Below are positions 3,752-60,260 of a DNA stretch of 64,000 bases, piece by piece (the first letter of the stretch is position 1; every line of letters begins with the position of its first letter). The DNA is from Escherichia phage vB_EcoM_WFK. Under the pieces are notes generated by a model, which saw only the letters and a list, made by a program, of their open reading frames with translations, did no database searches and was not told the DNA's origin. Both the position numbers and the translations under genes were made by a program. The DNA lies in the sequence record MK373775.1. One strand, written 5' to 3'.

Positions 3752-3987
3752 TGGACGATTTAATTCAAGCTATTAAATCAAACGACCTCGTTGCTACTCG
3801 AAAGTTTTTTGAAAGTGCAATGGCAGAAAAAACGGTTCGTTTGATTGAAGCACGCAAAGCAGAAATCGCTTCTCAATTTTTGATTGAAGGCGAAGAACCT
3901 GAAGAAGAAAAGAAAGCTAAAGCTTCGGAAGACGACGCTGATGAAGGCGATGACGACGAAGACGAAGATGATGAGGACGATGAATAA
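3751..3987 (+). CDS. 67: prohead core protein gp67
   Basis: 78 aa with strongly acidic D/E C-terminal tail; position 20-67-68-21. Confidence 0.85.
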
Positions 3988-22315: not shown

Positions 22316-22609
22316 TTATTTACGGAATGAAAGGAATGCTGGTGCTCGGAATGGAGTATCATCTTTAGAGTATTTAACTAATACGACCATTGGTACCTCT
22401 GTTTCTAAATGACCTGTCACTACACCGACAAAAATTTGATCAGTGTGCTCAGGGTCACGAAAGTTTTTAAGAGGTTCCATAGCAATATGGAATGCACCTG
22501 GGAATACTCGATTCAATTCGTCAATCACAGCTTCGTTAAAAACATCATCTGCCGGGATAGCATCTTCAACTACTAGTTCTTGACCATTAAAGCGAAGCAT
22601 AGATTTCAT
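22316..22609 (-). CDS. hypothetical protein (alt.-x position)
   Basis: Start at internal ATG because early promoter lies downstream of the first ATG. Confidence 0.5.
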   Translation of the reverse strand: MKSMLRFNGQELVVEDAIPADDVFNEAVIDELNRVFPGAFHIAMEPLKNFRDPEHTDQIFVGVVTGHLETEVPMVVLVKYSKDDTPFRAPAFLSFRK

Positions 22610-22638
22610 AACGTTTTCCTCATGTTGTTGATAGGATA

Positions 22639-22668
22639 ATAGTATCACACATCCATGTGTTTGTAAAC
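22639..22668 (-). promoter_or_regulatory. T4-type early promoter
   Basis: GTTTAC, 17-nt spacer, ATACTAT; overlaps 3' end of alt. Confidence 0.5.
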
Positions 22669-24755
22669 TATCCTTGGACAAATTTAAACGGAACTGATTC
22701 TAAATCCATTAAAGATGCTAACAATTTCAAACCTTTAGGTGCACTAGTTTTTTCTACAAATGAAGAGAACGATACCGGCTCATCCGATTCGATTTCACCC
22801 GTCATAGCAACCACCTCGCCTGTTTCCATGAGAACATCACCATCGTAAATGACAGCTTCATCCAACTGGTCTGAGGACATGACTTCAGCTTGAATAAATT
22901 TAAGGTTAGATTCTAAACCTGCACCAGTGTCAGATGACGCATCTGTAATTTTATTTATCTGCAAGAGAATGCCTCTAGGCAAAATAATTTCTTGCTCATT
23001 AGGGTGATTACTCAACTGTCCTGGATAAATCACGTTAACTTTATGGGCGCCGTCAATAGCCCATCCAACGTTAACACGGATTTGTTCTGGCGCATGCATA
23101 GCGGTACGCACCAGACTAGGAGAAATAGTAACACCTTCATCATTATTGTCAATGTTAAGCTCTTTGCGAACTTCTTCAGGAGCAAGTCCAAGGGCAACGT
23201 TCTCTTTAAACCCACCGAAAATAATAGGAGCTAGTGAAGTGGAAACATAGTTTCTGAAGTAGAATACCTTATTTTTAACCATTGCTTCGTAAATAGGCAT
23301 TCTGATAGACTGAGCTCTATATAACGTTAGTCCTTCAGGTAAACGGTCTCCATTTAAAAACGCCGAATCAAGACCATCAATAGCGCGTTTAACTTCATCT
23401 TCATCTGCAACATCGTAAAAATCTGGTTTATAACGACCTAACAACATATTATTGATATCGGTATACGCAGAAGAGGCATATTCACGAATAGCTCGTTTTT
23501 CAGCAACAGAGTATTGTTTAGGGTCCCGATTCATTGTTATATTAAAGGTGCCTCTAGCCGATTCTCGTGCATAAGTATACATCACACTAGACAAGAACGC
23601 TGATTTACGTTGTTTCCAAGTTTTTTCAGATACTTCAGCTAAAACATCGTCGGCCAGTTGGAAATTATCACGTCTAAAATCTTCAAACCATTCGTCTTTA
23701 ATAGAGTCCGCAATTTCGTTTGCAGCTTCAACAAAAGCAGCTAATGCTTTAACAGATGTTGTTTTTTCAGTTTTAATTTTCTTAGCAAACTTTTCTAAAG
23801 TTGGCTTAATAACACTACCATAAGAAACTTCATCAGCAAATCTAAAGGATTCATCAATACGATTATAAATCTTATTTTCGATATCAGCAACTAAAGTGCC
23901 TTTTGCTGTGGATGATGCTTGGGCTAGTACGATTTCATATGCTTCAGGAAGTAATTCGGCTGTAGCCGGGCCACTAACTTCTTTAGCAGAATTTTCGTAT
24001 TTCTGGAATAACTCACCTTCTTGGCGGTCAGCTTCTAAAGATTGGCTTGCGGCAATAGCACGACGAGAAATTTTAGTACGAGCAATAACAGGCTTATCTT
24101 TACGTTTTTCTTCTACAGCAGCAATAGAACCGGCGATAGCCGTTTCTTTGGTGACCTTTTCGCCAGTCTTTTTACTCACATAAACTTCGCCAACATCAGA
24201 ATCTACTTTCGCGTACAACTCTGTGTTAATGTTAGGGATGCCTTTAATATCTTCAATGTTGGCATTTTTACGAACCATCATCACATAGGTGTGTTTACCT
24301 GTGAATTGATACATTGCCGACAATACTTTAAAACGACCACCGGTTTTAGTAGAAACTAAACGAGCAAGAAGAGTTTGAAGCTGCTGTCCACGTCCTTTCA
24401 ATTTCTTGGTAGGGAATCGGAATAGAACCGCATCCATACGAAGAGCTTTAACCTGTTCATATACTGTATTGAAAATGGTGTTGATTGCATCAATAGGAGC
24501 AGGACCAAGGCCATTTTTCAATTCAGCGAGATTACCCTTTTCAGACAGACTCATAATAACAACATGAGCGTATTTGTCGCCAAGTTTAACTTGTTTTACA
24601 GCGTCGCCTTCGGAAAGGTAAGAGAATAAACGAACTACGATGTTTGTATCAACATCACCAATTTTCCAGACTTGTGGAACTTTAGCTTTAGGGTTCAAAT
24701 TGACGACAGGAAGACTGCCTTCAGATTCAAACACTTCATTTAATTGTTCAGACAT
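22668..24755 (-). CDS. alt: Alt-like ADP-ribosyltransferase (injected internal protein)
   Basis: 695 aa; position between gene 54 and ligase as in T4. Confidence 0.75.
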   Translation of the reverse strand: MSEQLNEVFESEGSLPVVNLNPKAKVPQVWKIGDVDTNIVVRLFSYLSEGDAVKQVKLGDKYAHVVIMSLSEKGNLAELKNGLGPAPIDAINTIFNTVYEQVKALRMDAVLFRFPTKKLKGRGQQLQTLLARLVSTKTGGRFKVLSAMYQFTGKHTYVMMVRKNANIEDIKGIPNINTELYAKVDSDVGEVYVSKKTGEKVTKETAIAGSIAAVEEKRKDKPVIARTKISRRAIAASQSLEADRQEGELFQKYENSAKEVSGPATAELLPEAYEIVLAQASSTAKGTLVADIENKIYNRIDESFRFADEVSYGSVIKPTLEKFAKKIKTEKTTSVKALAAFVEAANEIADSIKDEWFEDFRRDNFQLADDVLAEVSEKTWKQRKSAFLSSVMYTYARESARGTFNITMNRDPKQYSVAEKRAIREYASSAYTDINNMLLGRYKPDFYDVADEDEVKRAIDGLDSAFLNGDRLPEGLTLYRAQSIRMPIYEAMVKNKVFYFRNYVSTSLAPIIFGGFKENVALGLAPEEVRKELNIDNNDEGVTISPSLVRTAMHAPEQIRVNVGWAIDGAHKVNVIYPGQLSNHPNEQEIILPRGILLQINKITDASSDTGAGLESNLKFIQAEVMSSDQLDEAVIYDGDVLMETGEVVAMTGEIESDEPVSFSSFVEKTSAPKGLKLLASLMDLESVPFKFVQG

Positions 24756-29515: not shown

Positions 29516-29556
29516 TTTATTCTCCAGATGTTTAAGTTGTTTGTTGGTACAGGTCT

Positions 29557-36598: not shown

Positions 36599-37086
36599 GT
36601 TTGAATAATCTCAATGATTTCGTCTCGGGATAATCCATTGATAAGAACTGTTTTAGGCCCGTCAGTTTGGATTTTGTATGATTCAAACAATACACACAAC
36701 TCTTCTGCTGTATGATATGGGCTTGAGATTCCGAGACGGTTGAATTTGTCGGTAAGAGGGTCGCAAATAATATAGAATTTGATACCTGCGATATGTACGT
36801 TTGGTTGACTAATATTAATGAACACATTAGCGTCATATTTAGTCAAATTGTTTTGAAGAAATTCTACCATAGAATTAACTGCTTCTGGCATCGCTTCGCG
36901 TTTCTCTTCAGCGTATCGGGTTGAATACTCTTTTTGTTTTACTTTCTTTTTAAGATTTTTGGCCAGTGTAACACGTAGGTCAGTAAGATAACCAACTGGA
37001 CGTCCTTTCTTAAAGACCCGGATTCCGTCAGTTGTGTCTCCAAAAGCGTTTACGACCATATCGTTAGTAATCAATTGCATATTCAT
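36586..37086 (-). CDS. alc: Alc-like protein (host transcription shutoff), by position
   Basis: Start at internal ATG with GAGGA RBS; early promoter lies between first and internal ATG; about 166 aa. Confidence 0.45.
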   Translation of the reverse strand: MNMQLITNDMVVNAFGDTTDGIRVFKKGRPVGYLTDLRVTLAKNLKKKVKQKEYSTRYAEEKREAMPEAVNSMVEFLQNNLTKYDANVFINISQPNVHIAGIKFYIICDPLTDKFNRLGISSPYHTAEELCVLFESYKIQTDGPKTVLINGLSRDEIIEIIQTCLK

Positions 37087-37115
37087 AATTTTCTCCTCGT
37101 GTTGTTGATAAACCC

Positions 37116-37145
37116 ATAGTATCACCATCCTTGGTGTTTGTAAAC
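37116..37145 (-). promoter_or_regulatory. T4-type early promoter (alc)
   Basis: GTTTAC, 17-nt spacer, ATACTAT; lies downstream of first ORF ATG. Confidence 0.5.
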
Positions 37146-38764: not shown

Positions 38765-39285
38765 TTAGAAATATTTTTTGTATGAATTGATTACATTTTG
38801 GTCTACATCATTATCAATTTGTGCGACAAGATAAGAACTGATTTCAACTTCCTGAGGAGCTGCTTGAACTAAATCAGAGTTCAGATATTCACGAATCCAA
38901 GGATACGGATGCTTGGTCGGAGCATCCGTAATTGGACATGGCAAACCACACTGTTTCATACGAGACACAGTCAAGTAATCAACAAAAGCACACATACTCT
39001 GCGTATTGATACCTGGACATGTACCATCTTTAAAGAGGTGTGCAGCCCATTCCTTCTCTTGACTATTTACTTCCATAAAAATGTCAACTGCTTCTTGTTC
39101 ACATTCTTTAGCAATTTGAACCCACTCATCACCGTCAGTACCAGATTGAAGTTGACGGATAATGTACTGAGTACCCTTGAGATGGAGTTGTTCGTCACGA
39201 GCAATGAACTTCATAATCTTTGCATTGCCTTCCATAATTTCCATATTCTTGTGGAAGTTAAAGGTACCGTTATGTTCGATTGAGC
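38765..39285 (-). CDS. nrdB: ribonucleotide reductase small subunit NrdB, exon 2 (5' boundary approximate)
   Basis: Frame continues upstream of first Met to ..SIEHNGTFNFHKNMEIMEGNAK; RDEQLH iron-ligand motif. Confidence 0.75.
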
Positions 39286-39403
39286 TCGCTAATTCTCAAC
39301 CCGTTCTCTTATGAACTGCTACATATTACTATGCAGACCAGACTATATCACAATCCCAGAGGGATTCTCCCCATTTCGAGTCGCTTGACCCTACGTCCGA
39401 AGA

Positions 39404-40213
39404 CTAGTCGTTGAACCTTGCTTTGCAATTGTCGCCGTGCCATCGTTTATATGTTGATGGTGATAAATCTTTCTTATCACAATATGGACAATTCAATTGA
39501 ATTCTATTTGGATTTAATTTACATCTGTCATTATGTTTTAGATAAAATCCAGGACCTTTACCAATGTGACCACAAAAATCACACGTGATTTCTTTTTGTG
39601 CAGGATGGGTCCCGTTCTTAACCATTTCTAATGTTTTTGCTGATGTTCTTTTCTTATGGTCTTCTGATAAGAAATGATGTGAACCGTCATTTACCCGTTT
39701 TGATTGAGTTTCTGACTGCATTTTACCACCGCAAAATACATGAGTACCTTCTTTTATAGCTGCAATATTGCGTTCTTTAACTTTTGCAATATGCTCAGCT
39801 TGTTGAAAATTATGTATACCTAATGCAACTCTATTTAAATTAGATTTACGCTGTATTTCACCGTCTAAAAGATGAAATGTACCATTTTCTATCTTAGATT
39901 TAATAGAGGCAATATTTTTAGCTCGTACTTCAGGGATATTAAAAATCTGGATTTCTCTAGATTTTGCGGCTTTAGAAGCTAATTCAGAAATTTCTTCAGG
40001 AGAATATTTCATTCTAAGCTTTATAGCATGACAAGCCTGGTAATCTTTTTGAGCTAAATGTATATCATAATGTTCCTGTATAGAAAGGCACATCAAATTA
40101 TCTAAATCATTATTTTCACGGTTACCGTCTTTATGATGGATTTCATATGTTCTTCCATCAGAATCTTTAGGTATAGGTCCGTTAGCATCTATCCAAATTT
40201 TTCTATAGTTCAA
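39404..40213 (-). CDS. intron-encoded HNH homing endonuclease (I-TevIII-like, full length)
   Basis: 269 aa; HNH motif EIHHKDGNRENN..N; C-terminal Cys-rich zinc motifs; apparent TTG start; late promoter upstream. Confidence 0.85.
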   Translation of the reverse strand: MNYRKIWIDANGPIPKDSDGRTYEIHHKDGNRENNDLDNLMCLSIQEHYDIHLAQKDYQACHAIKLRMKYSPEEISELASKAAKSREIQIFNIPEVRAKNIASIKSKIENGTFHLLDGEIQRKSNLNRVALGIHNFQQAEHIAKVKERNIAAIKEGTHVFCGGKMQSETQSKRVNDGSHHFLSEDHKKRTSAKTLEMVKNGTHPAQKEITCDFCGHIGKGPGFYLKHNDRCKLNPNRIQLNCPYCDKKDLSPSTYKRWHGDNCKARFND

Positions 40214-40240
40214 TTGTGCATCCTCTTAAAAGTATAATCA

Positions 40241-40248
40241 TATTTATA
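40241..40248 (-). promoter_or_regulatory. late promoter TATAAATA inside nrdB intron (endonuclease ORF)
   Basis: Reverse-complement TATAAATA ~28 nt upstream of ORF start. Confidence 0.5.
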
Positions 40249-40358
40249 TTATACTAATTAAAGGTGCAAGCAAAACCTTGGCTGCTAGTTTTCCTATAAA
40301 GGACTTTCCAGCAATTAAAGGAGTTTTCGATAAACGTTACCGTTTAAAGGCGCATTTT

Positions 40359-41034
40359 ACGCAAAAGATACATAAAAACGAATAGCTTCTAAGGCATTAA
40401 TAACGTGCAAACAGAGGTAAAGAGATTTCATTAGCTCACGCTTCCAATATGTCTCATGCTCAATAGCATCTTCAATAACGTCTTCGTCTGCATTAATTTC
40501 TTTTTGGTATTCGATATCGGCTTTAGCGTTTTCCCAATAACGAGTTTTAACCAGAACATCATCGTAATATTTACCTATTGATTCAGCTCGTTTCATGATT
40601 GCTTCGTCTAATACAATCTCATCAAATACCTTAGATGGGTCTGTATAAAGATTTCGCATAATATGAGTGTACGAACGAGAGTGAATAGTTTCACTGAATG
40701 TCCATGTTGCAACCCATGTATCTAATGAAGGGTCGGAAATCAGTGCCATAAGTACCGCAGATGGGGCCCTGCCTTGGATAGAATCTAATAATGATTGATA
40801 CTTAAGATTGTTTGTAAAGATGTCCTGTTGGAACTGAGGAAGCTTATTGAACTGCGCAGAGTCCAACATCAAGTTTACCTCTTCTGGGCGCCAGAAAAAT
40901 GACAATTGCTTTTCAATAAGTTCTTCAAAAACTTTATGTCGCTGAATATCATAACGTGCGAGGCCAAGACCAGAACCAAAGAACATTGGTTCATTCAAAA
41001 CATCGACTTGTTGTGTGTTAAAAACTGTACTCAT
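40359..41034 (-). CDS. nrdB: ribonucleotide reductase small subunit NrdB, exon 1
   Basis: ETIHSRSY and NALEAIRFYVSFA motifs of class Ia R2; stop immediately after exon end. Confidence 0.8.
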
Positions 41035-41089: not shown

Positions 41090-43354
41090 TTAAAGCTTAC
41101 AAGCAGAACAATCTTCAGCTTTAGGTGTTTCTAATTCATAGTCATCTGTACCTGACCCATCACGAGTGTTATGATAGTAGAGGTTTTTTCCGCCAAAGTA
41201 CCAGAAGTAAAGCAGATCGTCAAGCATTACCGACATTGGCACTTTACCTTTCTCAAATACTGCAGGGTCATAGTAAGTATTAGCAGAAGCAGATTGGCAC
41301 ACCCATTTCAACATGATAGCAACTTGGGTCAAATAAGGTTTATTACCTTTCTTAGCAAGTTTCCACGCGTAGTCGTAAAGACTCATGTTATGTTCTATAT
41401 TAGGAACAACCTGTCGGAAGTTGCCTTCTTTAGATTCTTTAATACTTACTGGACCGCGTGGGGGCTCAATCCCGTTTGTAGAGTTCGATACTTGACTGCT
41501 TGACTCACAAGGCATGAGTGCAGACAACGTTGAGTTACGAATTCCATGTTCTTTGAGTTCAGCTCGAAGTTCTTCCCAATCACATACGTAGTTCGGGGCT
41601 GCGATTTGGTCAATCTTTTTATTGTACCAGTCGATAGGTAATTCGCCTCTAGACCATTTAGTGTCTGAATAATACTCGCAACATCCTTTTTCTTTGGCGA
41701 GTTTGATTGAAGCTTTGATAAGGCCATATTGCAATCTCTCAAACAATTCATGAGTCAAATCGTTAGCGTCTTCATATGAAGCGAAGTTAGAAGCTAACCA
41801 TGCAGCATAGTTCGTAACACCAACACCAAGATTACGACGCTTTTTGGCTTTTAAAGCTTCTGGAACCGGATAATCTTGATAGTCTAACAGGTTATCAAGT
41901 GCACGTACTTGTACTTCAGCAAGTTCATTAATTTTATCTTGGTCTTGCCAATCAAATTTATCTAACACGAATGCAGATAACGTGCATAAACCAATTTCAG
42001 CATCAGGACCATTCACATCATTAGTTGGAATAGCGATTTCACAACATAAGTTACTCTGACGAATTGGAGCTTTTTCACGAATAAACGGAGTGTAGTTATT
42101 CGTGTTATCAACAAACTGTGGATAAATTCGAGCAGTACCAGAGCGTTCAGTCATGAACAATTCAAAGAGTTCTAGTGCTTTGATTCTTTTCTTTCTGATT
42201 GTTGGGTCTTTTTCAGCTTTCTCATAAAGCTCACGGAATTTATCTTGATCTTCAAAGAACGAGTAGTATAGTTCGCCTGACATTTCGTGAGGGCTAAATA
42301 AAGTAATATAATCATTTTTACCAAGGCGTTCCATCATAAGGTCATTAATCTGAATTCCGTAGTCCATATGTCGAATACGGTTTTCATCCACGCCTTTGTT
42401 ATTTTTCAGAACTAATAGGTTCTCTACTTCTAAGTGCCACATCGGATAATACGCTGTAGCAGCACCACCACGAATACCACCTTGAGAACAAGATTTTACT
42501 GCAGTTTGGAAATGTTTCCAGAATGGAATAACACCCGTATGTCGAACTTCACCCATACCGATCTTAGAACCTTCTGCACGAAGCATACCAACGTTGATAC
42601 CAATACCAGCTCGTTTAGAAATATATTCAATAATTGATGCTGAAGTTTTGTTAATAGATTTTAACGAATCACCGGCTTCAATAACTACACAACTAGAGAA
42701 CTGGCGAGTTGGAGTACGAGCACCTGCCATAATTGGGGTTGGCAATGAAACTTGATGAGTAGAAACGGCATTATAAAAACGAATAATATGTTTCAAACGG
42801 TCATGAGTTTCGTCTTGGTGTAAGGCCATGCCAATAGCCATGATAGCAAACTGGGGAGTTTCATAAATCTTCCCAGTTGTTTTATCTTTAACTAGATATT
42901 TTTCTTTAAGCTGCATAGCACCAGCATAAGTCAGGTCAAAGTCTCGTTCATGTTTAATCTGTGAATCGAGATAAATGATTTCTTCTGCTGAATATTGAGA
43001 CAACAGCTCAGGGTCATATTTGCCTTCATTAACACAATAAGAAATATGGTCGATAAAAGCAGGCGGTTCAAACTGCCCATATACATCTTTACGAAGTGCA
43101 AACATTAGCCCTTTGGCGGCGACATACTGATAATCAGGTTCTTCGACAGAAATCGAGTTAGCTGCAACTTTAATACAAATCTTCTGGATATCTTTGGTGC
43201 TCATCCCGTCGACAAGATGGGTCTTAATTTCTTCATACAATTCATATGGGTCAATTTGTGTTCCTTCACATTGCCAAGTTAAGACTTGAATAATTTTCTG
43301 TGCATCAAAATTTTGGGATACACCTGAATTTTTCACTACTTTAAAATTATACAT
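41090..43354 (-). CDS. nrdA: ribonucleotide reductase large subunit NrdA
   Basis: 754 aa, same as T4 NrdA; C-terminal Cys pair. Confidence 0.95.
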   Translation of the reverse strand: MYNFKVVKNSGVSQNFDAQKIIQVLTWQCEGTQIDPYELYEEIKTHLVDGMSTKDIQKICIKVAANSISVEEPDYQYVAAKGLMFALRKDVYGQFEPPAFIDHISYCVNEGKYDPELLSQYSAEEIIYLDSQIKHERDFDLTYAGAMQLKEKYLVKDKTTGKIYETPQFAIMAIGMALHQDETHDRLKHIIRFYNAVSTHQVSLPTPIMAGARTPTRQFSSCVVIEAGDSLKSINKTSASIIEYISKRAGIGINVGMLRAEGSKIGMGEVRHTGVIPFWKHFQTAVKSCSQGGIRGGAATAYYPMWHLEVENLLVLKNNKGVDENRIRHMDYGIQINDLMMERLGKNDYITLFSPHEMSGELYYSFFEDQDKFRELYEKAEKDPTIRKKRIKALELFELFMTERSGTARIYPQFVDNTNNYTPFIREKAPIRQSNLCCEIAIPTNDVNGPDAEIGLCTLSAFVLDKFDWQDQDKINELAEVQVRALDNLLDYQDYPVPEALKAKKRRNLGVGVTNYAAWLASNFASYEDANDLTHELFERLQYGLIKASIKLAKEKGCCEYYSDTKWSRGELPIDWYNKKIDQIAAPNYVCDWEELRAELKEHGIRNSTLSALMPCESSSQVSNSTNGIEPPRGPVSIKESKEGNFRQVVPNIEHNMSLYDYAWKLAKKGNKPYLTQVAIMLKWVCQSASANTYYDPAVFEKGKVPMSVMLDDLLYFWYFGGKNLYYHNTRDGSGTDDYELETPKAEDCSACKL

Positions 43355-43994
43355 AATAATTCCATGTTGGATAATTTGATGATTTTAGCCGGCGTCTAAC
43401 CGTTTGGGTGCTCATAGATAAAACTATTGACGCTTCATTTAATGTATCATATATTACGTCGTTTATAATTACTTTCTTTGCAAATGGATTCTTGGCTCCT
43501 ATCATAGCATTAGAAATAGCTTGCTTAGTTGATTCTTTTAATGGGACTCCTTTAGAAATTTTTGTTTTAATTTTTATATTGTATTGTCCGCGTTTTTTAC
43601 CTAATAAAGAATTTCGTATCTTTTCTTTAGTCTCTTCAGATTTAACATGTCCTAGTTTGGAACGAGATATTTTATCTTTTGTTTTTTGGTCTAATTTTCG
43701 CCCTTTAAGCAAATCAACCATTTTTGCTCTAGCCCATCCAAATTCTTTATTATTTCTAGAACTCATTAAATTAACCGCGGTTGCTAAACCTAAATTGTTC
43801 GGATATATTTTTAATAAAAGAAGATGAGCCAAATAATGTTCTGAATATGTTAATTTAACTAGATTGTATGACTCATTGGTGCCACCTAAACATTTTGGGA
43901 TTATATGATGCCATTCACCATCTATATCTTCAAAATTTCTTTCTTTATTTACCAAGTTTTTATATATTTTTAAATAATCCATAGTATAATCCAC
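43347..43994 (-). CDS. free-standing HNH homing endonuclease (Mob-like)
   Basis: 215 aa; HNH motif EWHHIIPKCLGGTNESYN..H; NUMOD-like basic repeats; overlaps nrdA start by 8 nt. Confidence 0.8.
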   Translation of the reverse strand: MDYTMDYLKIYKNLVNKERNFEDIDGEWHHIIPKCLGGTNESYNLVKLTYSEHYLAHLLLLKIYPNNLGLATAVNLMSSRNNKEFGWARAKMVDLLKGRKLDQKTKDKISRSKLGHVKSEETKEKIRNSLLGKKRGQYNIKIKTKISKGVPLKESTKQAISNAMIGAKNPFAKKVIINDVIYDTLNEASIVLSMSTQTVRRRLKSSNYPTWNYYV

Positions 43995-46311: not shown

Positions 46312-46704
46312 CTACTTTTTAAAAGTTTTTTGCAAAAGTTCGATGATTTCGTCGACGTTGGTTTCATCTACGATACAATGGATTTTTGTTACACCTAAAG
46401 CTATACCTTCGTTAGTAGGTTGAGGCTTTACTATATCTACCTCAGTAAAGTATTTGAACTCGTCAGGATAAATCTCAAAATAAGTTTCAATTTCACCACC
46501 GGCAGAACATACAGTACCATCTTCCATAGTTACACTTACTACGTTTGACGTATCGCTATCATAATCAGGTTCCATTCCGTTTACAACAAAACTAGGCCCG
46601 TGAAGTTCAATCAATTTTAACATCTTAGCGTTATTGTGTGGTGCTTCTTGAACAAAGTCATCTTTAAATAAAGGGTTAATGATATAAGATTTTCCGATTT
46701 CCAT
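46312..46704 (-). CDS. hypothetical protein (130 aa)
   Basis: ATG start; early promoter upstream; first gene after gene 32 terminator. Confidence 0.5.
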   Translation of the reverse strand: MEIGKSYIINPLFKDDFVQEAPHNNAKMLKLIELHGPSFVVNGMEPDYDSDTSNVVSVTMEDGTVCSAGGEIETYFEIYPDEFKYFTEVDIVKPQPTNEGIALGVTKIHCIVDETNVDEIIELLQKTFKK

Positions 46705-46733
46705 TTTGATTTCCTCATGTTGTTGATAGGTCT

Positions 46734-46762
46734 ATACTAACACATCCAGGGAAGAAGTAAAC
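46734..46762 (-). promoter_or_regulatory. T4-type early promoter
   Basis: GTTTAC, 17-nt spacer, TAGTAT. Confidence 0.5.
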
Positions 46763-50118: not shown

Positions 50119-53100
50119 ATGGTTGACATCAAACGTAAGTTCAGGGCCGAAGATGGTCTTGATGCAGGCGGTGATAAGATAGTTAACGTTGCGCTTGCCG
50201 ACCGCACAGTTGGCACCGATGGCGTGAACGTTGACTTTTTGGTGCAAGAAAACACCGTACAGAATTATGACGATACGCGCGCGTATACAAAAGATTTTAT
50301 TGTTCTTTATAATAATCGTTTTTATCAAGCTTTAAGCGATATTCCAGCTCCGGCAGGCCCTTTCTCTTTGGTTAAATGGAAGGCAACTCGTGCAGATGCA
50401 GAATGGATTACAGTTCAAGGCGGAGATTTCCAATTATCAGTAGGTAACTCTATTGCGGTTGATACTTCAGCTGGCACTGATATTAATTTCACTTTGCCTC
50501 AAAATCCTTTAGATGGCGATACAGTTATTTTGTCTGATATTGGCGGTAGAGTAGGCTATGTAAAAGTTCAAATTACGGCAGAGGCTCAAAGTATTGTAAA
50601 CTTTAGAGGACAACAGGTTCGTTCAGTTTTAATGACGCACCCAAAATCTAAAATGGTCTTCATTTTTAGCAACCGCCTATGGCAAATGTATGTTTCTGAT
50701 TACGAACGTAATGCAGTCACAGTAACTCCTGCTACGCCATATCAAGCACAACCTAATGATTTTATCATTCGACGTTTTACATCAGCCGCTCCTATTAATA
50801 TTACATTGCCTCGTAATGCTAATAATGGCGATATTATTAATTTAGTGGATTTAGACAAATTAAACCCATTATATCACACAATTGTCAAAACTTACGATGA
50901 TACAACTTCTATACGAGAAGCTGGTGTTCATGTAGCAGAAGGACGTAATTTTGCTGATGCTCTTTTTATTTTTGATGCAGCATCTAGTTTGTGGAGAGTT
51001 TGGGAAGGTGACCAGAAATCTCGTTTACGTATAGTTCGTAATGATACTGATTTACGCCCTAATGAAGAAGTTCTTGTTTTTGGAACTGATAATAATACAA
51101 TCTCGACGGTAAATCTTACTTTGCCTACAGATATTTTGTCTGGCGATACTGTTAAAATATCGTTGAATTATATGCGTAAAGGGCAAACTGTAAAAATTAA
51201 AGCTGCTGAAGGCGATACAATTGCTAGCAGTATTTCTTTATTACAGTTCCCAAAACGTTCGGAGTATCCACCTGATGCACAATGGGTTTCTGTTAGTGAG
51301 CTGGAATTTAATGGCGATACTTCGTATGTACCTGTACTTGAGTTAGCTTATATAGAAGATTATTCATCTGAAACAAAATATTGGGTAGTTCAACAAAACA
51401 CTGTAACCGTCGAACGAGTCGATGCATCGAGCAATACAACTCGAGCTCGTTTAGGTGTTATTGCTCTTGCTTCTCAAGCGCAAGCAAATGTTGATTTAGA
51501 AAATGCTCCTGGTAAAGAACTGGCTATTACTCCGGAAACATTAGCAAATCGTACAGCAACTGAAACTCGTCGTGGTATTGCTCGTATTGCAACAACTGCA
51601 CAAGTTAACCAGAATACCGATTTTGCATTCCAAGACGACTTGATTATTTCTCCTAAGAAATTGAACGAACGTACAGCAACTGAAACCCGTAGAGGTGTTG
51701 CTGAAGTTGCAACTCAGGCTGAAACTAATGCTGGAACAGATGATACCACTATTATTACTCCTAAGAAATTGGATGCCCGTCAAGGTTCTGAAGTTTTATC
51801 TGGTATTGTAAAATACACATCTACGACTGGTACTACAGCTGCTACTATTCGTGGTAATGCTGGGACTAACGTTTATAACAAAGCCGTAGATAATTTAACT
51901 ATTTCTCCAAAGGCCCTTGACCAATATAAAGCTACCCCTACTCAGCAGGGTGCAGTAATTCTTGCTATTGAAAGCGAAGTTATCGCTGGCGAATCACAAG
52001 CTGGTTGGGCTAATGCTGTAGTGACCCCTGAAACTCTGCATAAGAAAACTTCTACTGATGGACGTATTGGTTTAATTGAAATTGCTACGCAAGCAGAAAC
52101 TAACACTGGAACTGATTATACTAGAGCAGTAACGCCTAAGACGTTAAATGATAGGAAAGCTACGGAAGGATTATCTGGCATAGCCGAAATTGCTACGCAA
52201 GTTGAATTTGATACTGGAACTGACGATACTCGTATCTCGTCTCCACTGAAAATTAAAACTCATTTTGATTCTTCTGACCGTACCAGTGTTAATTCTGATT
52301 CCGGACTTATTGAAGAAGGAACCTTGTGGAACCATTATACTCTTGATATTTCTAAAGCAAATGAAACACAACGTGGTACACTTCGTGTAGCGACCCAAGC
52401 TGAATCTAATGCAGGAACTTTAGATGACGTTCTTATTACTCCTAAAAAGCTTTTAGGGACTAAGTCCACTGAAACGTCTGAAGGCGTAATTAAGGTTGCT
52501 ACTCAGGCTGAAACTGTAACAGGAACTTCTGCTAATACTGCTGTATCTCCTAAGAATTTAAAATGGATTGTTCAATCAGAACCATCATGGACTGCTACTA
52601 CGGCAATTCGTGGATTCGTTAAAACTTCATCTGGTTCTATTACATTTGTTGGTAATGATACAGTTGGTTCAACACAATCTTTAGAATCATATGAGAAAAA
52701 TAGCTATGCGGTATCACCATATGAATTAAACCGTGTACTTGCTAACTACTTACCGTTGAAAGCTAAAGCAGCTGATAGTAATTTGTTAGATGGTCTAGAT
52801 TCTCTTCAGTTCATCCGTAGAGACATCGACCAGACGGTTAATGGTTCTTTAAGTCTTACTAAACAGACCAACCTGAGTGCTCCTTTAGTATCTACAAGCA
52901 CTGCTTCTTTTGGTTCCGAAGCATCTGTTACTCGTAGATTAACTCTTAATGACTCTAGCGGTTCCGAAATATTTTTCACTAAAGGAACCCAATCTCTTAG
53001 TAATAAAGAGAATTTCGTTGTTAGAGCATGGGGCAATAGCGCTACAGATGGTGCCCGTGATACAGTATTTGAAGCGGGTGACGAAACCGGATACCATTTC

Positions 53101-53769
53101 TATTCTCAGCGCGCTGCTGATAATAAAGTATCATTTAATATTAATGGAACACTTTATTCAACAGGTATTGTTTCTACAAATGGATTAAATGTTACAGGTG
53201 TTTCTACCTTTACAGGGCCTATTAGTGCTACAGGCGAAATTGTTTCTAGTTCTCCTATTGCATTCAGAGCTATTAATGGTAACTATGGTGTTATGCTTTA
53301 TAATGCTGGTAACAGTTCTTATATTGCATTAACTAACTCAGGTGACCAGACCGGGACGTTTAATAACTTACGCCCGATCACGATTAACAACGCCACAGGC
53401 TTAGTTCGTCTTGACAATGGTGTTCAAATCACGAGTGGTGCAACAATAACTACCGGTGGGTTAACTGTAAATAACAGAATTATTTCTAACGGCGTTAAAA
53501 CCGCCACTGTTTATACCGATAAACCAACAGCTTCTACTGTAGGTTTTTGGTCTATTGACATTAACGATTCTGCTGTATATAGCCAATTCCCTGGATACTG
53601 GACGCGTGATAACAAAGGTAACCGTGACCAAGAAATTAAATATCCTGGTACTTTGACTCAATTCGGCAATAGCTTAGATTCGCTTTATCAGGATTGGATT
53701 TGTTATCCTACAGGTGCAAATGGCGGTAGCATTCGATATACTCGTACCCTGTCTCTTATACACATCTGA
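50119..53769 (+). CDS. 34: long tail fibre proximal subunit gp34, artificially truncated by embedded adapter sequence
   Basis: 1216-codon ORF whose last 7 codons (LSLIHI stop) are read from adapter sequence; late promoter upstream. Confidence 0.85.
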   Translation: MVDIKRKFRAEDGLDAGGDKIVNVALADRTVGTDGVNVDFLVQENTVQNYDDTRAYTKDFIVLYNNRFYQALSDIPAPAGPFSLVKWKATRADAEWITVQGGDFQLSVGNSIAVDTSAGTDINFTLPQNPLDGDTVILSDIGGRVGYVKVQITAEAQSIVNFRGQQVRSVLMTHPKSKMVFIFSNRLWQMYVSDYERNAVTVTPATPYQAQPNDFIIRRFTSAAPINITLPRNANNGDIINLVDLDKLNPLYHTIVKTYDDTTSIREAGVHVAEGRNFADALFIFDAASSLWRVWEGDQKSRLRIVRNDTDLRPNEEVLVFGTDNNTISTVNLTLPTDILSGDTVKISLNYMRKGQTVKIKAAEGDTIASSISLLQFPKRSEYPPDAQWVSVSELEFNGDTSYVPVLELAYIEDYSSETKYWVVQQNTVTVERVDASSNTTRARLGVIALASQAQANVDLENAPGKELAITPETLANRTATETRRGIARIATTAQVNQNTDFAFQDDLIISPKKLNERTATETRRGVAEVATQAETNAGTDDTTIITPKKLDARQGSEVLSGIVKYTSTTGTTAATIRGNAGTNVYNKAVDNLTISPKALDQYKATPTQQGAVILAIESEVIAGESQAGWANAVVTPETLHKKTSTDGRIGLIEIATQAETNTGTDYTRAVTPKTLNDRKATEGLSGIAEIATQVEFDTGTDDTRISSPLKIKTHFDSSDRTSVNSDSGLIEEGTLWNHYTLDISKANETQRGTLRVATQAESNAGTLDDVLITPKKLLGTKSTETSEGVIKVATQAETVTGTSANTAVSPKNLKWIVQSEPSWTATTAIRGFVKTSSGSITFVGNDTVGSTQSLESYEKNSYAVSPYELNRVLANYLPLKAKAADSNLLDGLDSLQFIRRDIDQTVNGSLSLTKQTNLSAPLVSTSTASFGSEASVTRRLTLNDSSGSEIFFTKGTQSLSNKENFVVRAWGNSATDGARDTVFEAGDETGYHFYSQRAADNKVSFNINGTLYSTGIVSTNGLNVTGVSTFTGPISATGEIVSSSPIAFRAINGNYGVMLYNAGNSSYIALTNSGDQTGTFNNLRPITINNATGLVRLDNGVQITSGATITTGGLTVNNRIISNGVKTATVYTDKPTASTVGFWSIDINDSAVYSQFPGYWTRDNKGNRDQEIKYPGTLTQFGNSLDSLYQDWICYPTGANGGSIRYTRTLSLIHI

Positions 53770-54061
53770 CGCTGCCGACGACCGATCTAGTGTAGATCCC
53801 GCTGGTCGCCGTATCATTAAAAAAAAAAAAGGGTATGAAGCGGTCACACTAAATATAACTTCGGCTGAAACAGATCATAAGCTGCATACGATCGAACGTT
53901 GTCACAGAACGTAGTGGTGTACGTAGTATCAAAACTCGAAGCTACCACCACAACAACCTGCGCGACTAGTACACAGAACCACCTGCAAGACACGGACGAG
54001 CGTAGTTTGGATTTGTTATCCTACAGGTGCAAATGGCGGTAGCATTCGATATACTCGTACC
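53749..54061. other. sequencing-library artefact: Nextera adapter + index + P5 reverse complement, poly-A, junk, 55-bp duplicated flank
   Basis: 53749-53781 is exactly CTGTCTCTTATACACATCTGACGCTGCCGACGA; 53790-53818 resembles P5 reverse complement; 54007-54061 repeats 53694-53748. Confidence 0.9.
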
Positions 54062-54265
54062 TGGCAGAAAAATAAAGATGCTTGGACTTCATTTGCAATG
54101 GTATTTGATAGTGGCAACCCACCTTCACCTAGCGATGTCGGTGCTATCCCATCTGATAATGCTGTTATTGGAAACCTTACTATTCGAGACTTCTTACAAT
54201 TAGGAAATGTGAGAATTGTTCCAGACCCGGTTAACAAAACAGTTAAATTTATATGGGTTGAATAA
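54062..54265 (+). CDS. 34: gp34 C-terminal 67 codons, in frame with gp34 once 53749-54061 is removed
   Basis: Joining 53748 to 54062 gives continuous frame ..IRYTRT-WQKNKDAW.. ending TAA at 54263-54265. Confidence 0.7.
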   Translation, partial: WQKNKDAWTSFAMVFDSGNPPSPSDVGAIPSDNAVIGNLTIRDFLQLGNVRIVPDPVNKTVKFIWVE

Positions 54266-54273
54266 GAGGTTAT

Positions 54274-55398
54274 ATGGAAAAATTTATGGCAAGGTTTGGA
54301 CAGGGATACGTCCAAACGCCGTTTTTATCGGAAAGCAATTCAGTTAGATTTAAGCTAAGTATAGCGGGTTCATGCCCGCTTTCAACAACTAATCCGTATA
54401 TTTTATTCCAAAATGAGCCTTTAGGGTTGCAGTCTTTTGGTATTGGACTAAATGTTAGGGTGATAAATCCGGAAAATGGAACTATAGTTGATAGTAAATT
54501 ATACAATTTTGCGCCTACAAATAATGCAACTTCAGCTGCATTTATTTCGTTTGTTAATACATACGCAGATAATTTCATTTTCGCATTTATTTCCAATAAC
54601 AAATTTAATTTGCCACCAGAAATAATTGAATGGTTTAAAGCTGCTGGGAGTTCAGTTATACCGTCAATTGAAGTTGCTAGTCTTGTTGATATTTCATATT
54701 CAGCGTTTTATGTTTCAGGTAAAAATACTATTGCATTAGAACACATAAAATACAGTAATAAGAAAACAATTTCTGATTACGCAACTCCATTAGATATTGT
54801 ATATGACTCTATTGCTGATATAGGTGCTACCGGCTATCCTAGACGTACATATGAAGCTCTAGAAACGTTTTTATCTCCTGTTGGAGGAACTAACAATGAA
54901 ATAAAAAGGATGCCTACATCATCCCTTGTTACTCCTATCGCAAACTATGGATTAAAGCCTACAGATTTTCTTTATTTGAAATTTCAATTAATGGCTGATG
55001 AAGCATTACTAGAGGAAGGAACCGCAAGACTTTCAATTCGTTTCTTTAAGACTCCATCTAGCTCTCCTATATCATCTAAAGATATAAACTTTGATGGAAC
55101 TGCTGGTGAATGGAAGTTATACGAAGAATATGTTGAAATACCAGCCGAAGCCGATGGCTTTACGGTATATTGTTACCGTACGGCCCCAGTCGGTCAAGGT
55201 GGACTAAGAAATGTTATTTTCACTGAAGTATCATGTAACGGAAGTATAGCAAAACCTGCTGAGTTTGGTATAAACGGTATTCGTGTTAATTACATTGATG
55301 AATCATTAACCGGTAATGATATAATGGACTTGCCTACTCAGTTATCTAACGACACAGGTAAGGTATTTGGGCAGGAATTTAAAGAGTACACAGAATAA
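54274..55398 (+). CDS. 35: long tail fibre hinge connector gp35
   Basis: 374 aa; synteny 34-35-36-37. Confidence 0.85.
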   Translation: MEKFMARFGQGYVQTPFLSESNSVRFKLSIAGSCPLSTTNPYILFQNEPLGLQSFGIGLNVRVINPENGTIVDSKLYNFAPTNNATSAAFISFVNTYADNFIFAFISNNKFNLPPEIIEWFKAAGSSVIPSIEVASLVDISYSAFYVSGKNTIALEHIKYSNKKTISDYATPLDIVYDSIADIGATGYPRRTYEALETFLSPVGGTNNEIKRMPTSSLVTPIANYGLKPTDFLYLKFQLMADEALLEEGTARLSIRFFKTPSSSPISSKDINFDGTAGEWKLYEEYVEIPAEADGFTVYCYRTAPVGQGGLRNVIFTEVSCNGSIAKPAEFGINGIRVNYIDESLTGNDIMDLPTQLSNDTGKVFGQEFKEYTE

Positions 55399-56122: not shown

Positions 56123-59100
56123 ATGGCTACTTTAAAACAAATACAATTTAAAAGAAGCAAAACTGCAGGAGCACGTCCTGCCGCTTCAGTATTAGCCGAA
56201 GGTGAATTGGCTATAAACTTAAAAGACCGTGTACTTTTTACTAAAGATGACCAAGGAAATATTATTGATCTGGGTTTTGCTAAAGGTGGTAGTATTGACG
56301 GGAATGTTATTCATACTGGCAATTATAACCAAACTGGCGATTATACTTTAAATGGCACCTTCACTCAGACAGGTAATTTTAATTTAACCGGTATTGCTCG
56401 AGTAACACGTGATATTATTGCCGCTGGGCAGATTACGACTGAAGGCGGAGAACTTATTACAAAAAGTTCAGGTACAGCACATGTTCGTTTTCATGATTCG
56501 GCTGATCGTGAACGTGGCATTATTTATTCACCGGCTAATGATGGATTAACTACGCAAGTAGTTAATATCCGCGTTAAAGACTACGCCGCTGGTGATGAAA
56601 GCACCTATGCATTTTCGGGCAGTGGACTATTTACTTCACCTGAAGTATCAGCATGGAAATCTATGTCAACTCCTCAGATTTTGACAAATAGAGTTATTAC
56701 TAATAATAAATCTACGAGCGATTATGACATTTATTCTATGGCAGACAACGTTCCATTGTCTGAAAGCACTACTGCTATTAATCATCTCCGTGTTATGCGC
56801 AATGCTGTAGGCGCTGGTGTATTCCATGAAGTTAAAGATAATGATGGAATAACTTGGTATACTGGAGATGGCTTAGACACTTATCTTTGGTCGTTTACCT
56901 GGTCCGGTGGATTGAAAGCAGGCCATTCTATTTCTGTTGGTACTCCTGGTGGCAATAAAGGATACTCTGAATTAGGGACTGCTTCAATTTCTCTTGGTGA
57001 TAATGATACTGGATTTAAATGGCATCAGGATGGATATTTCCATACAGTAAACAACGGAACAAGAACTTTCATTTACGGTCCTGCGGAAACACAAAGCCTT
57101 AGAAAAATGGTTATGGGTTATTCTCCGGATGGTGTTCTTATGACAACGCCACCGACAGAAAACTATGCTTTGGCTACTGTTGTTACTTACCATGATAATA
57201 ATGCATACGGCGATGGTCAAACACTTTTAGGATATTATCAAGGTGGTAATTACCACCACTATTTCCGTGGTAAAGGCACTACAAATATTAACACTGCAGG
57301 CGGATTGTTAGTTACTCCAGGCAATATTGACGTTATTGGTGGTTCTGTTAATATCGATGGTAGAAATAATTCTTCTACGCTGATGTTTAGAGGTAACACA
57401 ACAGGATACAGCTCAGTTGATAATATGGATATTAAAGTTTGGGGTAATACGTTTGTTGATCCAAGCGGAGGTATCCGTAAAAACATTATGGAAATTTCTG
57501 ATGCAACTAGCTGGATGAGCTATATTCAAAGACTTACTACTGGCGAAGTAGAAATGAACGTTAATGGTTCATTTGAATCATCTGGTGTTACTGCTGGAGA
57601 TAGAGGAGTTCACACAACAGGTGAAATTTCATCTGGAGCAGTGAATGCTCTTCGTATTTGGAACGCAGATTATGGAGCCATTTTTAGACGTTCAGAAGGA
57701 AGTCTTCATATTATTCCAACTGCTTATGGCGAAGGCAAAGATGGCGATATTGGTCCACTTCGCCCGTTTAGTATGGCTTTAGATACCGGTAAAGTTACTA
57801 TTCCAGATTTACAATCAAGTTACAATACGTTTGCTGCTAACGGTTATATTAAATTTGTTGGTCATGGAGCGGGTGCCGGCGGTTATGACATTCAATATGC
57901 TCAAGCGGCTCCTATTTTCCAGGAAATTGATGATGATGCTGTAAGCAAATATTATCCTATTGTTAAACAGAAGTTTTTAAATGGTAAAGCTGTTTGGTCT
58001 TTAGGTACTGAAATTAGTTCAGGTACATTCGTTATTCATCATCTGAAAGAAGATGGTTCACAAGGCCATACGTCTCGTTTTAATCAAGACGGTACTGTTA
58101 ACTTCCCAGATAACGTTTCTGTCGGCGGCGGTGAAGCTACTATTGCTCGCAATGGTAATATCTGGTCTGATATCTGGAAAACGTTTACTTCAGCAGGCGA
58201 CGTAACTAATATTCGCGATGCAATAGCTACTCGTGTTGCTAAAGAAGGTGATACGATGACCGGTAGGTTGACTTTATCTGCTGGAAATGATGCCCTTGTT
58301 TTAACTGCAGGCACGGGCGCTTCATCGCACATCCGTAGTGATGTAGGTGGTACAAATAATTGGTTTATAGGCAAAGGCGGCGGTGACAATAGTATAAGTT
58401 TTTACAGTTACATTACACAAGGCGGTGTAAACATAACAAATAACGGCGAAATAGCGCTTTCTCCTCAAGGACAAGGAACATTTAATTTTAATAGAGACCG
58501 CCTTCATATAAACGGTACACAATGGACCGCACACCAGGCTGGCGATTGGGGAAATCAATGGCGCCAGGAAGCTCCTGTATTTGTGGATTTTGGTAATGTC
58601 GGTAATGATAGTTATTATCCTATTATTAAAGGAAAATCTGGTATTACTAATGAAGGGTATATATCTGGTGTAGATTTTGGTATGCGACGCATTCCTAATA
58701 ACTGGGCACAAGGTATTATTCGTGTAGGTAATCAGGAAAACGGTTCCGACCCACAAGCTATCTTCGAATTCCACCATAATGGAAACATGTACGTTCCTGA
58801 CATGGTTAAAGCTGGAGTAAGAATATCAGCTGGTGGAGGTGACCCTGCATGGACAGGCGCATGTGTTGTTATTGGTGATAATGACACCGGATTAGTTCAT
58901 GGTGGTGACGGCCGAATCAATATGGTTGCCAATGGTATACATATTGCAAACTGGGGAGCAGGCTATCAATCTCATCCTGGGCTTTGGGATTCAACCGGTG
59001 CTTTTTGGACAGAAGTTGGAAGAGCTATCGTTTCTCATGGGCATCTCGTTCAGGCAAATGATAGTTATTCAACGTTTGTCCGTGATGTTTATGTCCGTTC

Positions 59101-59434
59101 TGATATTCGTGTTAAAAAAGACCTTGTTAAATTTGAAAATGCTTCTGAGAAGCTTTCAAAAATTAATGGTTACACTTATATGCAGAAGCGAGGCCTAGAT
59201 GAAGAAGGTAATCAAAAATGGGAACCTAATGCCGGTTTAATTGCCCAAGAAGTTCAAGCTATTTTACCTGAATTAGTTGAAGGCGATCAGGATAGTGAAG
59301 CTTTACTTCGTTTGAACTATAACGGTGTAATTGGTTTAAATACAGCTGCAATCAATGAGCATACTGCAGAAATTGCAGAACTTAAATCAGAAATTGAAGA
59401 ACTTAAAGCATTAGTTAAATCATTGTTAAAATAA
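56123..59434 (+). CDS. 37: long tail fibre distal subunit gp37 with C-terminal intramolecular chaperone domain
   Basis: 1103 aa; C-terminal ~111 aa begins SDIRVKK and ends in coiled-coil. Confidence 0.88.
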
Positions 59435-59465: not shown

Positions 59466-60260
59466 ATGGCAGTAACAGGACCGTGGGTAGGATCGTCTGC
59501 AGTAGTTAATACAGGACAAAATTGGATGGGCGGCGCGGCCCAACGATTAAGAATGGGTGCTCCATTTTGGATGAGTAATATGATAGGTCGATCTGTTGAA
59601 GTAATTCACACGCTTGGAGCAGACCATAACTTCAATGGTCAATGGTTCCGAGATAGATGTTTTGAGGCAGGTAGTGCACCTATAGTGTTTAATATTACTG
59701 GAGATTTAGTATCATATTCTAGAGATGTGCCACTTTTCTTTATGTATGGGGATACGCCTAATGAATATGTTGTTCTTAATATTCATGGTGGTGTTCATAT
59801 GTGGGGTCGTGGTGGTAATGGTGGATACACTCACTCAGGAGGCGACGGTAACGGTACACAAGGCGGTCATGTTATTCAAAATGATATCGGTGGACGGCTT
59901 CGTATTTGGAACTACGGTGTTATAGCTGCTGGTGGTGGCGGTGGTGGTGGTATTGCATATCGTCCACACTCAGGGGCAAACTGGCAAGATATCGGTGGCG
60001 GTGGTGGTCGACCTTTCGGTGGCGCTGGCGGCGGCGGCTATTCTGGCGGTGGAGCTTCTTATGAAGGTCCGGGTGGTGGATATAACTATGGTAACGCTCA
60101 CTCTGGGCAGGGTGGCAATGCTGGTGCAGCCGGACAAAACGCGTGGTCTGACGGCGGTAAAGTTCTAAAAGTTGGAGCAGGTGGTGCGTCTGGTCATGCA
60201 GTGTTTGGATCTTCTCCAACTTGGGGTGCTGTTGGAACAATTTACGGACCAAGAGTATAA
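59466..60260 (+). CDS. 38: T2-type receptor-binding adhesin gp38 with glycine-rich motifs
   Basis: Start at ATG with GGAGG RBS (ORF-track TTG is inside hairpin); conserved N-terminus; poly-Gly tracts. Confidence 0.85.

Follow-up and report, generated by a model that had tools for sequence, protein, structure and literature searches.

Sequencing adapter and a duplicated assembler overlap almost certainly account for the split of tail-fibre gene 34 in the deposited genome of phage vB_EcoM_WFK

In the deposited genome of Escherichia phage vB_EcoM_WFK (MK373775.1), gene 34, which encodes the proximal subunit of the long tail fibre, is interrupted, raising the question of whether this phage makes a shortened gp34 or whether the interruption belongs to the record and not to the phage. 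We analysed a window of 64,000 nucleotides of that record. An original prediction, made from the letters of this window, held that an Illumina adapter lies embedded in gene 34 as an assembly artefact. We conclude that the segment at 53749–54061 is almost certainly an artefact of assembly and finishing in the deposited sequence and no part of the phage genome. These 313 bp leave no room for a biological reading; contamination of this kind is known, but its internal position is unusual.

Comparison with canonical Illumina oligonucleotides revealed that the first 70 nt of the 313 bp are commercial synthetic oligonucleotides in library order, all on the plus strand. The Nextera read-1 transposase adapter (TCGTCGGCAGCGTCAGATGTGTATAAGAGACAG) is present as its reverse complement at 53749–53781, where the predicted exact match was recovered in full (33/33), and the 19-nt Tn5 mosaic end within it occupies 53749–53767. 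The adapter occurs once in the window when up to 3 mismatches are allowed, and 100 shuffles gave 0 matches, so that the chance expectation for a 33/33 match in this test is 0. The next 8 nt, CCGATCTA (53782–53789), had been described as index-like. Their reverse complement, TAGATCGG, has a single mismatch to the catalogue i5 index N/S501 (TAGATCGC), and each of the 17 other i5 indexes tested had at least 4 mismatches to it. The reverse complement of the P5 flow-cell sequence follows at 53790–53818 with the two mismatches already noted (27/29), and then a run of 12 A residues (A12) at 53819–53830, likewise as predicted, which we read as base calls made past the end of the library molecule. Positions 53749–53818 thus hold, contiguously and all in reverse complement after the insert, mosaic end and adapter, 8-nt i5 index and P5.

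The stretch beyond the A12 run had been judged unlike the rest of the phage, which its composition bears out, although its length is 176 nt (53831–54006, plus strand) and not about 175 nt. Its GC content is 0.477 compared with 0.378 for the window, and it has a strong excess of A over T. When the 176 nt were searched with distant blastn against phage records, only chance matches were returned (E about 7); there was no match in 5,426 complete E. coli genomes, and among 72,556 plasmids matches appeared only at E ≥ 2. Because no match was meaningful, the segment is not host, vector or other phage DNA held in the phage, E. coli and plasmid collections. We infer that it is the tail of a read that had gone beyond its template, and that 54006 is a former contig end. 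Directly after it, 54007–54061 repeats 53694–53748 without a single difference (55/55, both on the plus strand), exactly as had been claimed. The first copy is genuine phage sequence, the final 55-mer before the adapter; the repeat opens with TTGGATTTGTTATCC, and the 64 kb of the window have no other long direct repeat that is exact. The second copy would be the former start of the contig, a SPAdes k-mer overlap left from a circular assembly. A scan of IMG/VR for the exact junction string gave 0 matches, and our search of the literature on translated-adapter peptide signatures and of adaptor-contamination surveys found nothing specific to the WFK case.

On the plus strand, genuine gene 34 occupies 50119–53748 (codons 1–1210, at 100% nucleotide identity with gene 34 of MK373774.1) and 54062–54265 (codons 1211–1277 and the stop codon, as placed by excision, Pfam and structure alignment). 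The open reading frame of the record, 50119–53769, terminates ...IRYTRTLSLIHI*, and its stop is a TGA at 53767–53769 inside the adapter; that the end of this frame is translated adapter was part of the original prediction and is correct. Cutting out 53749–54061 or, equivalently, 53694–54006 gives an open reading frame of 3834 nt and 1277 aa ending at 54265, the length and end point that had been foreseen. Because the in-adapter TGA halts gp34 at residue 1216, the annotation pipeline called three bogus coding sequences, each of which we identified on the plus strand by exact protein match. QBQ77263.1 (50119–53769, 1216 aa) is annotated as putative long tail fiber, proximal subunit, and QBQ77265.1 (54098–54265, 55 aa), an orphaned C-terminal fragment of gp34, carries the same annotation. 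Between them lies QBQ77264.1 (53720–53914, 64 aa, hypothetical protein WFK_00242), a translation of repeat, adapter, poly-A and noise that forms a singleton cluster among about 15 billion proteins. An extra frame of translated adapter had been proposed here at 53714–53914; its nature stands, but the coding sequence in the record starts at the ATG at 53720 and not at the GTG at 53714, which would give 66 aa.

Domain and structure comparisons agree with the excision. Pfam matched Gp34_trimer in gp34, and the Gp34_2nd profile, which is covered only from position 1 to 88 of 102 by the truncated product (115.6 bits), is covered from 1 to 102 of 102 by the repaired C-terminus (142.7 bits). Over their whole length, the C-terminal 350 aa of the repaired protein align with 4UXE, a crystal structure of the C-terminal region of T4 gp34 (E = 1.3e-120), with TRTWQK exactly conserved over the repaired junction. 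Together with relatives that have no insert, the complete Gp34_2nd domain and the alignment of 4UXE across the junction uphold the claim that the adapter falsely truncates gp34. Repaired gene 34 is a full-length T4-type gp34 orthologue, whose true product is intact at 1277 aa. As in T4 gp34 (PDB 4UXE, 5NXF and 9X3R), it has Gp34_trimer and a complete Gp34_2nd, and gp35, gp36, gp37 and gp38 follow downstream in the same order in T4 and in the WFK window. T4 gp34 has 1289 aa and the repaired WFK protein, a Mosigvirus (RB69-like) version, 1277 aa; nothing biologically notable differs. The 313 bases combine library adapter, noise from the instrument and an assembler overlap written twice, so the ‘truncation’ of the gene reflects an error in the database, with no biology behind it.

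Two further features of this tail-fibre region were observed. Within gene 34, 51523–51792 consists of degenerate in-frame direct repeats (period 108–120 nt, 69–76% identity) that encode a recurring ...ITPE/KKL..RTATETRRG.A..AT... motif of the gp34 shaft. The gp35 hinge connector (54274–55398) has a marginal match to the ILEI (interleukin-like EMT inducer) domain at residues 58–131, above the Pfam threshold at 30.3 bits for a cut-off of 27.

Related phages were compared by megablast of 53300–54500 (1201 bp) against 50,697 phage records. Eighty related records matched, mostly RB69-like Mosigvirus phages of E. coli and Shigella, and the 313-bp insert was present in none of them (0/80): query coverage was at most 79% in all 80, and the match span was 888 bp (1201 − 313) in every record among the matches listed. 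The best match, vB_EcoM_WFL6982 (MK373774.1), is 100% identical on both sides of the insert, and its gene 34 (QBQ77002.1, 1277 aa) is identical to the excised WFK gene at 3834 of 3834 nt. The rest of the window is 99.99% identical to WFL6982 over 63.7 kb, and the lengths of the two records agree once the insert is counted (164,590 bp for WFK, or 164,279 for WFL6982 + 313 − 2). Other differences between the two phages in the window are one intergenic indel of 2 nt, one substitution in gp37 and a cluster of five alignment columns in gp38.

The indel is a deletion of TC at 29554 relative to WFL6982, in an intergenic hairpin loop (GGTACAGG...CCTGTACC) between gp30.7-like and gp30.8-like genes. The substitution in gp37 (56123–59434) is P781T at 58463, and gp38 (59466–60260) differs by Y192V/S193R at 60039–60043, between adhesin glycine runs (GGGG-YS-GGG versus GGGG-VR-GGG). 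All coding differences over the 63.7 kb, the artefact aside, thus fall in the receptor-binding distal tail fibre, as if WFK and WFL6982 were host-range variants of one phage.

The same contamination was found in other deposited phages. Nextera adapter read-through in assemblies is an error class for which NCBI VecScreen and FCS-adaptor screen. Adapter, index, P5 and poly-A taken together, a string of 82 nt, matched 55 unrelated phage records from at least 15 host genera, including Bacillus, Vibrio, Listeria, Salmonella, Streptococcus, Pseudomonas and Roseobacter, and in 46 of these 55 it lay no more than 250 nt from the end of the record. In the Vibrio phages JSF5 and JSF6 and in vB_EcoM_01 the layout is insert, adapter, index, P5 with scattered errors, a homopolymer and then junk to the record end; the homopolymer after P5 is poly-A in JSF5 and JSF6, and A8 and an N followed by a long poly-G in vB_EcoM_01. 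The junk tails of these three records resemble the 176 nt of WFK no more than shuffled sequence does, and the tails of contaminated records are as unrelated to one another as to that of WFK. The read-through in JSF5, JSF6, Bacillus phage Maceta and some 50 others shares with WFK its oligonucleotides, their order and orientation, and a tail of poly-A and noise. In WFK, unlike these cases of end contamination, the segment lies inside the record, some 15 kb from its end by WFL6982 coordinates; it comes with a duplication of 55 bp, and because of it an essential structural gene is annotated as three coding sequences.

How did a read end come to lie inside a gene? Korf et al. 2019 list both vB_EcoM_WFK and WFL6982 and sequenced each of their phages by either PacBio or Illumina, the main text naming no platform for WFK (PMC6563267); Illumina and Nextera are implied for WFK by the adapter itself. 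Their Illumina phages were prepared with the Nextera DNA library kit, run on MiSeq v3 600-cycle kits and assembled with SPAdes 3.12, ‘careful option (55kmer)’, and circularly permuted T4-like assemblies were rearranged to match published phages (PMC6563267). The exact duplication in WFK is 55 bp, equal to the SPAdes k given there. From the combination of Nextera libraries, 600-cycle MiSeq runs, the ‘55kmer’ setting and rearranged T4-like contigs, an origin at a contig end is most likely.

The bases themselves show that a Nextera fragment whose insert ended at 53748 was read past its end. The read passed into the Tn5 mosaic end and read-1 adapter and on across the i5 index (N/S501) and P5, gathering errors, until it left the library molecule and gave poly-A and noise; reads of 300 nt have room for 258 nt of such read-through. 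MiSeq reads that reach or overrun the end of a short library molecule show errors in the index and P5, poly-A and noise, and the comparators JSF5, JSF6 and vB_EcoM_01 support this. In the further course that we propose, SPAdes at k = 55 may have left the read-through unclipped, as a tip attached to the circular graph of a circularly permuted T4-like genome; from such a graph it writes a contig that opens and closes with the same k bases. The contig would have started with the 55-mer X (53694–53748) and finished with X, adapter and junk, and re-ordering to match relatives would have joined its end to its start untrimmed (...X-adapter-junk | X-genome...). The junction at 53748/53749 is the read-level one, at a Tn5 cut site, and that at 54006/54007 would be the finishing join. 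An untrimmed SPAdes k-mer overlap, known from circular and circularly permuted genomes, is likewise an exact duplication of length k. Its copies usually sit at opposite contig ends, whereas in WFK, probably through the re-ordering of the contig, they lie 313 bp apart with the adapter tip between them. If 258 nt of a 300-nt read are read-through, about 42 nt remain for the insert; k = 55 is longer than this, and attachment of the tip would need the lower-k rounds of SPAdes or extra reads.

That shortfall of insert speaks for a different account of the same bases, in which the artefact formed inside the contig: a chimeric or low-quality read path, departing from the 55-mer and coming back to it as a bulge or small loop of the de Bruijn graph, would have been resolved into the consensus. 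A simple tip needs extra assumptions when each 300-nt read holds less than k of insert beside a 258-nt tail, and an exact duplication of length k is expected for any path that departs from and returns to a single k-mer of the graph. Read-end noise, however, has no reason to return to the same genomic 55-mer; adapter and junk stand at the record end in 46 of the 55 other contaminated records, as a tip would; and the T4-like contigs were explicitly rearranged (PMC6563267). We therefore consider an in-contig loop unlikely, and less likely than a join of contig ends.

Could the 313 bp instead be real phage DNA, a mobile element with a 55-bp target-site duplication or some other foreign DNA, with truncated gp34 actually made? 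The flanking direct repeats have a superficial likeness to a target-site duplication, but we regard this possibility as negligible. A phage insertion would have to begin with 70 nt of synthetic library oligonucleotides, and the identical string is found in phages of Bacillus, Vibrio, Listeria, Streptococcus and other hosts, at record ends. The insert has no terminal inverted repeats at its ends and no open reading frame with a homologue, the sole annotated one being a singleton; the remainder is unmatched in the phage, E. coli and plasmid collections, and the truncation takes away the end of the Gp34_2nd domain. A mobile genetic element was rejected on three of these counts: the lack of terminal inverted repeats, the lack of a homologous open reading frame, and no other copy of the 176 nt in the collections searched. 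T4 gene 34 mutants, moreover, have no functional long fibres and are non-infective. Yet vB_EcoM_WFK was propagated from plaques and has normal T4-like morphology (PMC6563267), which argues against the loss of gene 34.

Internal adapter in a tail-fibre gene has a counterpart in Acinetobacter phage TAC1 (MK170160.1). As in WFK, the Nextera adapter, with index, P5 and poly-A, lies within the record between exact copies of a short direct repeat and splits the gene, here into two coding sequences (TAC_0042 and TAC_0043). TAC1 differs in having a head-to-head adapter pair (record positions about 22587–22734), index S517, shorter junk and a repeat of 25 nt compared with 55 nt. Further internal adapter matches were seen in Pd_22F, BR141d, P22H1, ESSI2_ev040 and BK070142. 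Whether an adapter tip with a duplication of assembler k length, at a hidden contig join, is a recurrent class of error in deposited phage genomes is in our estimate an evenly balanced matter.

Elsewhere in the window, several features were observed in their own right. The gene for the small subunit of ribonucleotide reductase, nrdB (38765–41034, minus strand), is in two pieces, 40357–41034 and 38765–39244, between which lies an open reading frame for a 269-aa HNH endonuclease (39404–40213). Rfam at its gathering threshold returned no match in the whole window, thereby missing the intron candidate in nrdB, a group I intron match at 39319–39559 that is sub-threshold at 34 bits for a gathering score of 50. 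The arrangement looks like the T-even nrdB intron with its I-TevIII-type endonuclease. A second frame, of 215 aa (43347–43994, minus strand), is directly upstream of nrdA (41090–43354, minus strand), overlapping its start by 8 nt. It contains a NUMOD3 motif and an I-TevI-type DNA-binding domain and is probably a free-standing homing endonuclease; its equivalent in WFL6982 is annotated ‘group I intron endonuclease’. Finally, a 46-nt element (TTTCATAACGTTTTCCTCATGTTGTTGATAGG...TATCACA) is present in three copies that are 76–78% identical, at 22604–22649, 37081–37126 and 46699–46744; on the minus strand, each copy has the look of a conserved promoter or leader with a ribosome-binding site and a start codon after it.

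To the original prediction, the present analysis adds the identity of the index, the three bogus proteins and the explanation of the 55-bp duplication as the SPAdes k. The value of the finding is in database curation, as the public WFK record overstates the genome by 313 bp, and QBQ77263.1, QBQ77264.1 and QBQ77265.1 would mislead both host-range comparisons of tail fibres and protein clustering. Internal adapter tips escape end-trimming and leave falsely split genes, tail-fibre genes having been hit in both WFK and TAC1; if they do form a recurrent class, such errors could be found and repaired automatically. For the two phages themselves, the real differences in the tail fibres of WFK and WFL6982 lie in gp37 and gp38, and not in gp34.
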